DNA of 64,000 bases from an uncultured Bacillales bacterium. Lineage in GTDB: Bacteria > Bacillota_I > Bacilli_A > RF39 > UBA660. The translations under genes and the position numbers were made by a program. Location: assembly GCA_947164795.1 (NCBI GenBank), contig CAMUXV010000002.1, forward strand, positions 156-64,155, written 5' to 3'. How positions within the stretch are numbered: position 1 is the first letter of the stretch; each line of letters opens with the position of its first letter. This document shows positions 20,080 through 44,530 of the stretch, one piece after another. Under the pieces are notes generated by a model that saw only the letters and a program-made list of their open reading frames with translations, did not search any database and was not told where the DNA came from.

Positions 20080-21231
20080 ATGAAAAAAATATTACTATTT
20101 ACCTTCTTCATATTTATACCAGTATTAGTAAAAGCAGAAGATATTGAAGATTTAGCTCCTAATGCTAGTAGTGCAATTATGATTGAGGCTTCTACAGGAG
20201 AAATATTATTCCAAAAGAATCCAAATGAAAAGCTAGCTCCCGCATCTATGACAAAGATGATGAGTCTATTACTTATATTTGAAGAGATAGATAAAGGAAA
20301 TATCAAATGGGATGAAATGATAACTACTTCTGAGCATGCATCAAGTATGGGAGGAAGTCAAATATTTTTAAAAGTAGGAGAAAAAATGAGTGCACTCGAT
20401 ATGATAAAAGGAATAACAATAGCATCAGGAAATGATGCAACAGTAGCAATGGCCGAAAGAGTATCTGGTACTGAAGAATCTTTTGTTAAAAGAATGAATG
20501 AAAGAGCAAAAGAGTTAGGACTTAAGAACACTAATTTTATTAATGCTACTGGACTTGATGCCGATAATCATTATTCAAGTGCTTATGATATGTCACTAAT
20601 TGCTAAAGAACTAGTAAAACATGAAAAAGTACTAGAGTTTAGTAGTACCTATGAAGATTATTTAAGAAAAGACACTTCTAATCCATTTTGGCTAGTCAAC
20701 ACTAATCGATTAGTAAAGTTTTATCCAGAGATTGACGGATTAAAAACAGGATTTACCAGTAGCGCAAAATATTGTTTGACTGCCACTGCTAAAAAAGACG
20801 GAATGCGATTAATAACAGTAGTGATGAATGAACCAGATACAGGCAAAAGAAGTTCTGATACAAAAAAGATGCTAGATTATGGTTTTAATATATATGGGGT
20901 AAAGAATATTATTGATGAAAATACTATTATTGAAAAAAAAGAAGTAGAACTAGGTGAAATAAAGGTTGCCGATATTGTGCCTAAAGAAACAATAACAATA
21001 CTAAGCAAAAAATCTGATAAAGAGAGAGATATAACATATAAAACAAATATAAATAGATTAATAGCCCCAATAAAAAAAGGAGATGTAGTAGGTACTATAG
21101 ATATACTAGAGAATAATAAAAAGATATCAGAAGTAGATGCTACAGTTAAAGAAGATATAAAGAAAGCAAATATATTTAAAATATTTTTAAGGAACTTAAA
21201 GGGGGTACTAAGTACTAAATTAGTTTTTTAA
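20080..21231 (+). CDS. dacF: D-alanyl-D-alanine carboxypeptidase (PBP5 family; DacF-like by context)
   Basis: Signal peptide, then SMTKMM (SxxK), SGND (SxN) and KTGFT (KTG). Sits directly upstream of spoIIAA and sigF-like genes, as in the Bacillus dacF-spoIIA region. Confidence 0.8.
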   Translation: MKKILLFTFFIFIPVLVKAEDIEDLAPNASSAIMIEASTGEILFQKNPNEKLAPASMTKMMSLLLIFEEIDKGNIKWDEMITTSEHASSMGGSQIFLKVGEKMSALDMIKGITIASGNDATVAMAERVSGTEESFVKRMNERAKELGLKNTNFINATGLDADNHYSSAYDMSLIAKELVKHEKVLEFSSTYEDYLRKDTSNPFWLVNTNRLVKFYPEIDGLKTGFTSSAKYCLTATAKKDGMRLITVVMNEPDTGKRSSDTKKMLDYGFNIYGVKNIIDENTIIEKKEVELGEIKVADIVPKETITILSKKSDKERDITYKTNINRLIAPIKKGDVVGTIDILENNKKISEVDATVKEDIKKANIFKIFLRNLKGVLSTKLVF

Positions 21232-21297
21232 TAAAAATATAAAGAAAATTATCAAATTTTTACAATTTTCGAAAAAAAAGTTGTATATATATTATAG

Positions 21298-21320
21298 GAA
21301 GCAAATATGCTTCTTTTTTT
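21298..21320 (+). terminator. Rho-independent terminator after dacF
   Basis: GAAGCA-AATA-TGCTTC followed by TTTTTTT. Confidence 0.75.
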
Positions 21321-21413
21321 GCACAAAAAATGTCGATTAAAATAAATAACTAGTTTTGTCGAATTAAACTTTTATTTAGGAAAATATGATAAATTGTAAA
21401 GGAGGTGAATATA

Positions 21414-21722
21414 TTGCTAAAGACAAATTTAGAATTTAGTAGAGGAATACTCTTTGTAAGATTAAAAGGTGATTTAAATAGAAGTACCATCAAAGAACTA
21501 AAAATTAAAGACTTTAAATTCATTGTCTTAAATATTAACAATATGTATTCTATAGATAGTTATAGTATTAAATATTTAAATAAGATTTATAAAAAATATC
21601 AAGATAAGGATAGAAAAATGATTATATGTGATAAATTTAATATCTCTCAAAAACTATTAAAAGATATACCCAAAATTAATGAAGAATACGATGCATATAA
21701 ATTATTTGAAAGGATGATTTAA
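21414..21722 (+). CDS. spoIIAA: Anti-sigma-F antagonist SpoIIAA-like STAS protein
   Basis: Collinear with SpoIIAA: GILFVRLKGDLNRSTIKELK / FIVLNINNMYSIDSYSIKYL (Bacillus: LCIRLTGELDHHTAETLK / IVLNLEDLSFMDSSGLGVIL). The Asp-Ser of the phosphorylation site is retained. A TTG at 21414 sits 6 nt after AGGAGGTG, whereas the track GTG at 21405 lies inside the RBS. Confidence 0.7.
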   Translation: MLKTNLEFSRGILFVRLKGDLNRSTIKELKIKDFKFIVLNINNMYSIDSYSIKYLNKIYKKYQDKDRKMIICDKFNISQKLLKDIPKINEEYDAYKLFERMI

Positions 21723-21724
21723 TA

Positions 21725-22393
21725 TTGAATAAATACGATAAAATAATATCATCATGTGAAGGATTAATATATATGATAATAAATAACTATTTTAAAGGAT
21801 ACTCAAGAGAAGATTTATACCAAGTAGGTGTAATTGGAGTAATTAAGGCATATGATAAATATAAAGAAAACAAGAATACTAAGTTTTCTACTTATGCATA
21901 TAAATGGATCTATGGAGAAATATATGCATATATAAATAGTAGTAAATTACTAAAAGTATGTTCAGAAAATATAAAAACATATAAAAAAATAATAGATGCA
22001 AGAAATATTTTATGCCAAACATTAATGAGAGAACCAAGTGTTAATGAAATAGCATTATACATAGATGAATTACCAGAGACAATATATAGTACTATTAATT
22101 CAATGCAAGAAATAGACAGTATAGATAGAATTATTTTTGATGGAGATAAAGATATAAGTATGTCTGACACAATAAAAGATAAAAAAGACTACTACAACGT
22201 GGACTATATATATTTAGAAGAAGAAATATCCAAGCTTCCATTAGAAGAACAAAAAATAATATATTATCGATATTATAAAGATAAAACACAAAGTGAAGTA
22301 TCAAAAATGTTAGGTATTCATCAAGTAGAAGTATCAAGAAGAGAATATAAAGCATTAAAAAAAATACGAAAAAATTACCAAAATGTGGCATAA
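21725..22393 (+). CDS. sigF: Sporulation-type sigma factor (SigF/SigG-like), 222 aa
   Basis: Region 2: DLYQVGVIGVIKAYDKY...KFSTYAYKWIYGEI. Region 4: IIYYRYYKDKTQSEVSKMLGIHQVEVSRREYKALKKIR, very close to the Bacillus SigF pattern YLRYYKDQTQSEVAERLGISQVQVSRLEKKIL. Starts 2 nt after the spoIIAA stop. Confidence 0.8.
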   Translation: MNKYDKIISSCEGLIYMIINNYFKGYSREDLYQVGVIGVIKAYDKYKENKNTKFSTYAYKWIYGEIYAYINSSKLLKVCSENIKTYKKIIDARNILCQTLMREPSVNEIALYIDELPETIYSTINSMQEIDSIDRIIFDGDKDISMSDTIKDKKDYYNVDYIYLEEEISKLPLEEQKIIYYRYYKDKTQSEVSKMLGIHQVEVSRREYKALKKIRKNYQNVA

Positions 22394-22479
22394 ATAAGCA
22401 TAAAATCTAAAAAATGTAACCAAATCGTTTACATAAAAATTATCCAATTTATGAGACAATGAATTTAAGGTGATGTACT

Positions 22480-22755
22480 ATGAACAAAGGACAATCAAAA
22501 CATTATGATGTGTATGAATTAATTGCTAAGAACATAAAGTATTATCGAAAGCAAGAGAGAATGACACAAGCACAGCTTGCAGAGAAAGCTGAATATTCTC
22601 ACGAATTTATAAGAAGAATTGAAGCTCCTAATAGTAAGAAAAACTTCTCTCTTGAGGCAGTAAGTAACATAGCTAATGCATTAGATATTGATATAGAATT
22701 ACTATTTAGTAAGAAATTATTGGAAAAAGAAGACAATGAAAATAGTCAAAGATGA
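22480..22755 (+). CDS. XRE-family helix-turn-helix transcriptional regulator (91 aa)
   Basis: KYYRKQERMTQAQLAEKAEYSHEFIRRIE is a classic Cro/C1-type HTH. Ends in TGA. Confidence 0.75.
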   Translation: MNKGQSKHYDVYELIAKNIKYYRKQERMTQAQLAEKAEYSHEFIRRIEAPNSKKNFSLEAVSNIANALDIDIELLFSKKLLEKEDNENSQR

Positions 22756-22890
22756 CTATTTTTTTAGTTATAAGGAAAGTATACATATAAATATGTATAT
22801 TACTATAAACAAGCAATTAATGTATAGTTTTTTCTTTATTTATATAGACTTTAATAAAATACTTTAGTATAATTAAATTGGTGATATAAA

Positions 22891-23124
22891 TTGGAATATC
22901 TAAGTTTAGAAGAGCTTTATAAAGACTTACAAGGTGCCTTTAACGTAAAATTAAGACTAATAGGAAAATATTATAGCCATATTAAAATAATAGATATATG
23001 GGATTATTTAAGAATAAATAAATGGTCTAAGGATAAAGGACTAACTATATCAGAAATGGTCAATGATATTATAGATGTAGATATTAAAAAAGTAGATTTA
23101 TTTAAAAGAGAAAAAACAAAGTAA
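22891..23124 (+). CDS. ComN/YrzD-like post-transcriptional regulator (77 aa, TTG start)
   Basis: IIDIWDYLRINKWSKDKGLTISEMVNDIIDVDI resembles ComN (VDELWNFL..KKW.....ELVNDILSV). Sits immediately upstream of secDF, as yrzD does in B. subtilis. From memory only. Confidence 0.5.
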   Translation: MEYLSLEELYKDLQGAFNVKLRLIGKYYSHIKIIDIWDYLRINKWSKDKGLTISEMVNDIIDVDIKKVDLFKREKTK

Positions 23125-39552: not shown

Positions 39553-39580
39553 ACTTAACATAATATTAATTATAGGAACC
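39553..39580 (-). other. dif: dif-like XerC/XerD chromosome-dimer resolution site
   Basis: Minus-strand 28-mer GGTTCCTATAA-TTAATA-TTATGTTAAGT. The XerD arm matches E. coli TTATGTTAAAT at 10/11. The whole site matches 22/28 to E. coli dif and 22/28 to the Staphylococcus/Bacillus-type ACTTCCTATAATATATATTATGTAAACT (as I recall them). It lies in the ORF-free gap where gene orientation converges. Confidence 0.6.
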
Positions 39581-43560: not shown

Positions 43561-44465
43561 TACTTTTTATTATTTTTATCAATATATTTTAAACTAACAG
43601 CGGTTTTATTTAATTTCTTTATTGCACTAATTTTTAATTGGCTAATTCTTTGAGTTGATAAATTCAAAATTTTTGATATTTGATTTTGTTTATATTGCAT
43701 TCCACCATATAATCCATAATGTAATTTTAAAAATAGTAGTTCATTTTTATTCAAATCAGTTTTATCAATTATTTCATATAGGCTATATCTATCGATAATT
43801 TTATCAATATCACATTGATTTGCTTGAGATATAGAATGAATAGATAGATAATCAACTATATCATTTAAATTTTGACAGTCCTGTGTTATATCAGACATCA
43901 AATATACATCATTATATATCTTTTCAAATTTTTTTATCTCATCTACATCAATATTATAATGCTCTGAAATTTCTTTTTGAGTTGGCTCTCTTCCTAGAAT
44001 GTTTGTTAGTTCTTTTACCTTTCTATTATAGCTTTTTAGTTCCTCCATCAATCTAACAGGTAAAGATATTATTCTAGTTTTCTCATCAACAGCTCTTTTT
44101 ATACAACGATCGATCACTAGAAATGCATAACTCGAAAATGCAATATCTGCTTTTTTAGCATATCCATCAATAGCTTTAATTAATCCAACATTTCCCTCTT
44201 GTATAATATCAAGAAATGGTAACCCACAATTAATATATTTTAGAGCAATACATCTTACTAATCTTAAATTTCTCTGAATAAATATTTTACGAGCTCTTTT
44301 ATCCCCCAGAGAAATTTGATATAAAAGTACTTCTTCCTCATCCTTTTTAAGTAGAGGAAGGTTAATTAAATTATTATACCAAACCATTGTATCTACATTA
44401 TACTCATCATATGTAATTTCATCCTCTAATCTCTTATATAATTGATTTAGTTCTATATTGTTCAC
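43560..44465 (-). CDS. Sigma-70 family RNA polymerase sigma factor (301 aa, regions 1.2-4, divergent)
   Basis: RNLRLVRCIALKYINCGLPFLDIIQEGNVGLIKAIDGY (region 2.1-2.2), ISLPVRLMEELKSY (region 3), QNQISKILNLSTQRISQLKISAIKKL (region 4.2). GTG start after GAGGGGTGA. Confidence 0.8.
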   Translation of the reverse strand: MNNIELNQLYKRLEDEITYDEYNVDTMVWYNNLINLPLLKKDEEEVLLYQISLGDKRARKIFIQRNLRLVRCIALKYINCGLPFLDIIQEGNVGLIKAIDGYAKKADIAFSSYAFLVIDRCIKRAVDEKTRIISLPVRLMEELKSYNRKVKELTNILGREPTQKEISEHYNIDVDEIKKFEKIYNDVYLMSDITQDCQNLNDIVDYLSIHSISQANQCDIDKIIDRYSLYEIIDKTDLNKNELLFLKLHYGLYGGMQYKQNQISKILNLSTQRISQLKISAIKKLNKTAVSLKYIDKNNKK

Positions 44466-44530
44466 AAAATATCACCCCTCAGTAAATATTTGTGGAATAT
44501 TATATCACAAAAAGAAAAAAAAAGATACTT

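Follow-up and report, generated by a model that had tools for sequence, protein, structure and literature searches.

The switch formed by SpoIIAA, SpoIIAB and SpoIIE is the textbook account of how the two daughters of one division take different fates. It belongs to the spoIIA operons of Bacillus, Geobacillus and Clostridia (PDB 1TH8, 1L0O), which combine a SpoIIAA-fold STAS gene, a SigF-type sigma gene and a Spo0A box in the promoter. A STAS antagonist encoded beside a sigma factor of the SigB/F/G family also occurs in the RsbV-RsbW-sigma-B module of Bacillus, Listeria and Staphylococcus, a system that itself needs the HATPase kinase RsbW and PP2C phosphatases. HsbA of Pseudomonas aeruginosa, which works with FlgM and HsbR, shows that the partner of a STAS antagonist need not be a HATPase kinase; HsbA is phospho-switched via HsbR, targets an anti-sigma factor and not a sigma factor, and belongs to an unrelated lineage and pathway (PMC5085249). 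The present study concerns a STAS-sigF operon in a 64,000-nt stretch of DNA (hereafter the window; positions 156 to 64,155 of CAMUXV010000002.1) from an uncultured bacterium of the order RF39. The window belongs to contig C2 of an assembly of 0.88 Mb (G000) with a guanine-cytosine (GC) content of 26.8% and a completeness of 76%. In the whole of this order of uncultured, genome-reduced gut Bacilli, spoIIAA-spoIIAB-sigF is reduced to spoIIAA-sigF. The two genes of the operon in the window are the following:

21414-21722, + strand: SpoIIAA-type STAS gene, 102 aa (Pfam STAS, 26.2 bits; cut-off 22.6)
21725-22393, + strand: SigF-type sigma gene, 222 aa, TTG start (best NCBIfam family SigF, TIGR02885)

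The locus shares with the spoIIA operon the STAS gene lying directly upstream of the sigma gene, the Spo0A box in the promoter, and the flanking genes, dacF upstream in this genome and spoVA downstream in other genera. It differs in that the order lacks SpoIIAB and SpoIIE, and in that the phospho-serine varies among the genera of the order. Only 2 nt separate the STAS stop codon (21722) from the sigma start codon (21725), with no kinase gene between them, as a preliminary description made from the sequence had stated. The same description gave the small protein as 105 aa; its identity as a SpoIIAA-like STAS protein holds, but the implied GTG start at 21405 is less likely, gene callers and an AGGAGG motif at 21400-21405 favouring the TTG at 21414 (102 aa).

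Searches of the 76%-complete genome for SpoIIAB (TIGR01925), HATPase_c_2 (PF13581) and SpoIIE (PF07228) gave no match, and phmmer and tblastn searches of it with canonical SpoIIAB returned only noise (best E 0.67). Relatives were examined because the assembly is incomplete. None of 25 genomes of the genus (this one and 24 other species) contained a small HATPase_c_2 open reading frame (ORF) or SpoIIE. Across the order we sampled 251 genomes from 110 genera, with completeness of 90% or more in nearly every case; a HATPase_c_2 ORF of 140-155 aa was found in 0 of the 251, and SpoIIE (PF07228) was without a match in 248. In four further families belonging to the class (G029, G030, G033 and G038), one of which has a genome of 0.9 Mb, the same searches recovered the canonical spoIIAA-spoIIAB-sigF module together with SpoIIE, and the method therefore detects spoIIAB and SpoIIE where they are present. 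The SpoIIAB kinase and anti-sigma factor, and SpoIIE, are absent throughout the order. Without them, the textbook forespore switch cannot work here as described. Of the two possibilities raised in the preliminary description, a kinase encoded elsewhere in the genome is rejected by the negative HATPase_c_2 and SpoIIAB searches in genome, genus and order; the other, a sigma-F that is controlled differently, is supported. A motif scan for Hanks kinases and PP2C phosphatases in the available part of this genome also found none, a negative that is weak evidence because the genome is incomplete. The sole strong SpoIIE/HATPase_c_2 match among the 251 genomes (G264:C2:142342-143340, locus L070) is a single 625-aa PP2C-HATPase_c_2 fusion ORF. 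It does not represent a SpoIIAB/SpoIIE pair and may have been acquired horizontally.

Among 151 sampled genomes of the order, a sigF-like gene was detected in 127 and the STAS gene in 101; where both were detected, STAS lay directly upstream of sigF on the same strand in every case (98/98). In 44 of 45 loci the distance from STAS stop to sigma start lay between -8 and +24 nt. Ten inspected genomes had initially appeared to hold the sigma gene only, and in five of these a broader STAS profile brought a diverged STAS to light. Genes 3' of sigF vary by genus, being an XRE-family gene and a ComN-like gene here and spoVAC/AD or yqfC/D elsewhere. Within the genus, one genome of 96% completeness (G020) has spo0A, sigE, sigK and sigG, with both STAS and the sigF-like gene undetected; the assembly may have a gap there, or sigma-F alone may really have been lost. 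Fusion of the two proteins was considered as a 'Rosetta stone' for their interaction and set aside, as those of the 150 best sigma relatives that are longer proved to be duplications or fusions of an unrelated kind. An apparent STAS-sigma fusion in a public cluster of 13 sequences (P0081), which joins STAS to the sigma N-terminus (…ERMV-W-LNKY…), most likely arises from a TGA stop read as Trp, probably through gene calling of low-GC genomes with genetic code 4. Annotation artefacts of this type could mislead surveys of domain architecture.

The AlphaFold2 model of the small protein has a mean predicted local distance difference test score (pLDDT) of 91.6 and a predicted template modelling score (pTM) of 0.83. 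In Foldseek its five top PDB matches were all SpoIIAA chains from SpoIIAA-SpoIIAB complexes, with 1TH8_B ranking first (E 8e-8, TMq 0.77), and the question of whether the protein folds as a STAS domain is thereby answered in the affirmative. Although its Pfam STAS score is marginal, the protein shares 30% identity with canonical SpoIIAA from a related family (G030). The model departs from SpoIIAA in that helix 1 has shrunk to one turn and the region of helix 3 is non-helical. Both proteins of the operon fall below the NCBIfam equivalog cut-offs; for STAS the score against the SpoIIAA equivalog TIGR02886 is 19 bits versus a cut-off of 114.75.

At the phospho-site the STAS protein reads SIDSYS, retaining D48-S49 and lacking the glycines of the canonical DSSGLG loop (the GLG of SpoIIAA). 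D48-S49 is invariant within the genus, both in 14/14 loci and in 19 aligned sequences. Among 33 STAS proteins of other genera, the serine column holds Ser in only three, all from one genus, and N, L, E, K, I, V, C, Q or M in the remaining 30, while the preceding Asp is kept in 29 and the Gly two residues on in 28. The phospho-site context noted in the preliminary description thus applies to this genus and one other, and not to the 30 of 33 STAS proteins elsewhere. Since the serine is replaced in these proteins and neither kinase nor phosphatase was found, the D-S motif is weak evidence for phosphorylation. The ratio of nonsynonymous to synonymous substitutions (dN/dS) within the genus is ~0.11 for STAS, compared with 0.19 for the sigma gene, so STAS is not decaying there. 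With its confident SpoIIAA-like model, its constant place beside sigF where both were detected and strong purifying selection, STAS is no relic in this genus.

For the sigma factor, SigF is the top-scoring NCBIfam family (TIGR02885, 166.6 bits), ahead of the SigG models (116-126 bits) and SigB (76 bits), although the equivalog cut-off of 321 bits is not reached. The low SigB score, the Spo0A box and the sporulation-gene neighbours set it apart from the sigma-B module. Its orthology to SigF rests on synteny, namely STAS upstream here and spoVA downstream in other genera. The closest PDB sequence match is the Geobacillus stearothermophilus sigma-F chain 1L0O_C from its complex with SpoIIAB (E 1e-33); region 4.2 is nearly identical in the two, consistent with the resemblance of region 4 to the Bacillus-type SigF pattern seen earlier. 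Residue 5 aligns with residue 31 of 1L0O_C, and some 17-30 N-terminal residues of canonical sigma-F are missing from the 222-aa protein. This short N-terminus, also remarked upon in the preliminary description, is real, because the frame is open for only five codons upstream of the start. Short forms prevail among the top ~90 clusters of sigma relatives, and identity to the protein is 54-80% in 21 of the 24 other species of the genus. An exact database look-up of the sigma protein returned no record, and a scan of the genome contigs with it gave only an irrelevant match. Two extra RpoD-like sigma paralogs of ~275-300 aa and 444 aa are encoded in the genome (window 43563-44471, - strand, and G000:C16:14676-16022, + strand); by NCBIfam neither is a sporulation sigma factor, and the housekeeping RpoD lies on contig C7.

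The region upstream of STAS holds three elements that may bear on transcription of the operon:

21331-21337, + strand: a second heptamer, TGTCGAT, resembling a Spo0A box but imperfect, 26 nt upstream of the perfect one
21357-21363, + strand: perfect Spo0A box TGTCGAA, at -57 from the start codon of STAS
21387-21395, + strand: candidate extended -10 element TGaTAAATT, with TG-N-TAAATT invariant in an alignment of eight species

Of 47 STAS-sigma loci in the order, 44 have a perfect box in either orientation at a distance of 49-73 nt upstream, most often at -57 to -61; the genome-wide density of perfect boxes is 0.068 per kb, counting both strands. In the second box, TGTCGA is invariant across the eight aligned species of the genus (the seventh base being T, A or C) and the flanks have diverged. 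If the candidate -10 element is real, the perfect box overlaps the -35 region, and the operon promoter would then be one activated by phosphorylated Spo0A (Spo0A~P) from a box at that position. The spoIIG promoter of B. subtilis has this box-over-(-35) layout. At one locus of another genome of the genus (L026, G018:C18, 700-760), an imperfect Spo0A box, ATCGACA, was observed upstream of spoIIGA-sigE, ~39 nt before the start codon and followed by TATAAT.

We tentatively favour, at somewhat less than even confidence, a model in which Spo0A switches the operon on and the action of STAS on sigma-F is independent of phosphorylation, most likely resting on direct binding. Under this model, Spo0A~P would induce the operon at the onset of sporulation, and coupled translation would yield STAS and sigma-F together and in similar amounts. 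STAS would then modulate sigma-F without phosphorylation, most likely by binding it directly and so holding or inhibiting it until the forespore is established. From then on, as elsewhere among spore formers, sigma-F would drive sigG and the SpoIIR-SpoIIGA-SigE signal. A fuller version, which we consider possible but doubtful, is that the four-protein switch (SpoIIE, SpoIIAA, SpoIIAB and sigma-F) has collapsed to a phosphorylation-free pair, with STAS itself binding a minimal sigma-F and with cell-specific release coming about in some other way, for instance through differential stability or the septum.

Several points weigh against the proposed action of STAS on sigma-F. To our knowledge, STAS antagonists bind anti-sigma factors or kinases, never sigma factors. 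No STAS gene was found upstream of sigF in at least five of the ten inspected 'sigma only' genomes; STAS is truly missing in some genomes and is therefore dispensable in some lineages. No STAS-sigma fusion is present among the 150 best sigma relatives. Ser49 is kept in this genus, so an unrelated kinase may phosphorylate it. Finally, RF39 metagenome-assembled genomes (MAGs) were assigned a sporulation probability of 0% by SpoMAG (PMC12536801), and spores have so far gone unobserved in these uncultured bacteria.

A rival suggestion is that sigma-F is held by an unrecognised, non-homologous small anti-sigma-F factor, with STAS as its antagonist, again without phosphorylation by SpoIIAB or dephosphorylation by SpoIIE. 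The retention by STAS of loops that make up the partner-binding face in SpoIIAA (GxL(N/D), and, in other genera at the frequencies given above, Asp48 and the Gly at +2) fits this suggestion, and HsbA, which binds the non-kinase anti-sigma factor FlgM, provides a precedent (PMC5085249), albeit one that still relies on a kinase and phosphatase. No gene is consistently linked to the operon, however, the downstream neighbours differing between genera, and we consider such a factor unlikely. The absence of STAS upstream of sigF in some genomes, taken with the very strong conservation of the Spo0A box and the location of the operon 17 kb from dif and the GC-skew switch in this genus, could instead mean that STAS no longer regulates sigma-F, which would be controlled by Spo0A-dependent transcription only, perhaps supplemented by gene position or proteolysis, while STAS is kept for another role or by operon inertia. 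Such an arrangement has a low probability in our estimation, given that STAS has a dN/dS below that of the sigma gene, that its adjacency and tight coupling to sigF hold in all 98 genomes with both genes, and that terminus proximity is not kept in three other genera.

Continued phosphorylation of Ser49 in this genus by a kinase unrelated to SpoIIAB, so that an altered phospho-switch persists, would account for the invariant D48-S49, but this invariance is unremarkable in a protein with a dN/dS of 0.11. Moreover, the available 76% of the genome has no Hanks-kinase or PP2C motifs, the genus has neither SpoIIE nor HATPase_c_2, the loop-shaping glycines are lost (DSYS versus DSSG), and sister genera carry N, L, E, K or I at the position; we regard this explanation as quite improbable. 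A more radical proposal is that the lineage does not sporulate, the STAS-sigma pair being left over or else co-opted for a non-sporulation programme. Beyond the SpoMAG prediction and the lack of observed spores, the pseudogenes of sigF, sigE and sigK in one congener (G015) and the missing STAS-sigF of G020 point in this direction. Against it, Spo0A, SigF, SigE, SigG and SigK are intact in most species, SpoIIGA, spoVA, GerQ and YqfC/D are present, purifying selection is evident, and Spo0A and forespore promoters are conserved. RF39 amplicon sequence variants (ASVs) also moved with spore formers in an egg-transplant experiment (PMC7028958), and sporulation of RF39 has been predicted (PMC10868615); a non-sporulating lineage is accordingly very unlikely in our judgement. 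The possibility that a canonical spoIIAB was simply missed, either in the unassembled 24% or through divergence, draws on the incompleteness of the genome and on the precedent of sigE and sigK, which are missing from this assembly only. We give it hardly any credence, since the operon position of the kinase is occupied by a 2-nt gap, the gene is also absent from 24 congeners and from 250 order genomes at ≥90% completeness, and the same searches find spoIIAB in other families.

The remainder of the sporulation cascade is represented in the genus, in which Spo0A, SigF, SigE, SigG, SigK and SpoIIGA are all present. This genome and nearly all congeners have a Spo0A that exceeds the cut-off, and SigG is encoded at C4:26049-26846 (- strand; 353 bits). 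SigE (~305 bits) and SigK (~215 bits) were found in all 24 other species of the genus; their absence here is probably due to the missing 24% of the genome, which indicates how much weight that fraction carries in single-genome claims. SpoIIGA (PF03419, 144 bits) adjoins pro-SigE in G018. A promoter of the forespore type, GAATA-N18-CATAATGA, precedes sigG and is kept in most of 13 species of the genus, with GTTTA replacing the -35 GAATA in this genome and in G011. The sigG gene (G000:C4:26049-26846, - strand) has no spoIIGA-sigE upstream; rluD and lspA come before it, a kinase-like gene and ylmC/ymxH after it, and in most of the 13 species the GAATA-N18-CATAATGA promoter stands just before the ribosome-binding site. 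A clear GerQ homologue was identified at G000:C4:22293-22676 (+ strand; PF09671, 113 bits), although a 2024 survey counted gerQ as a reduced or absent gene in RF39 (PMC10868615). The congener G015, a single 1.5-Mb contig of 69% completeness, has stop codons in its sigF-like and sigK genes and a truncated sigE (C1:814273-814937, 66493-67119 and 1284107-1284622), and looks like a species losing sporulation.

The genes surrounding the operon in the window are as follows:

20080-21231, + strand: D-Ala-D-Ala carboxypeptidase, dacF-like (Peptidase_S11, 273.5 bits, plus PBP5_C)
21296-21315, T-run to 21322, + strand: terminator-like hairpin and T-run ending the carboxypeptidase gene
22480-22755, + strand: XRE-family helix-turn-helix (HTH) protein (HTH_3, 36 bits)
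22891-23124, + strand: Post_transc_reg (ComN-like) small protein (PF13797, 27.8 bits), followed by secDF; context only

A dacF gene with its own terminator had been noted upstream of the operon, and both features were recovered. The hairpin and T-run (21296-21322) form the sole terminator-like site in 21150-22950, for which the chance expectation is 0.1. Not every species of the genus has the dacF-like gene in front of the operon, other genes taking its position in loci L005, L006 and L007. Downstream, the XRE-family gene is kept in the genus and in one other genus (synteny of L002-L007, L027 and L033).

Cumulative GC skew peaks at ~40 kb in the window, beside a dif-like site at ~39553-39580, and the window therefore spans the replication terminus. 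Terminus proximity of the operon is seen also in the congener G019 (dif at 145974, sigma gene at 162667). No skew switch was found within 65-110 kb of the operon in three other genera, so terminus proximity is no general feature of the kinase-less operon, and transient genetic asymmetry was rejected as a general explanation.

The absence of the two enzymes has already been published in outline: a study of RF39 reported the order to be without spoIIAB and spoIIE and still predicted spore formation 'with markedly different regulation' (PMC10868615, Microb Genom 2024). That study is a KEGG presence/absence survey and describes neither the STAS-sigF pair that remains nor the decayed phospho-site, the promoter or any mechanism. 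To this the present analysis adds that the serine is kept within the genus, that the Spo0A box holds its position throughout the order, that some lineages have lost STAS and that terminus position gave a negative result, together with the dN/dS values. A large and common gut order keeps all four sporulation sigma factors and Spo0A but has neither enzyme of the switch. Either sigma-F becomes forespore-specific in another way in these bacteria, or the cascade serves something else. In SpoMAG, spoIIAB is one of nine genes found in all predicted spore formers (PMC12536801). Marker-gene predictors of sporulation that use spoIIAB will call these bacteria non-sporulating, and they may be wrong.

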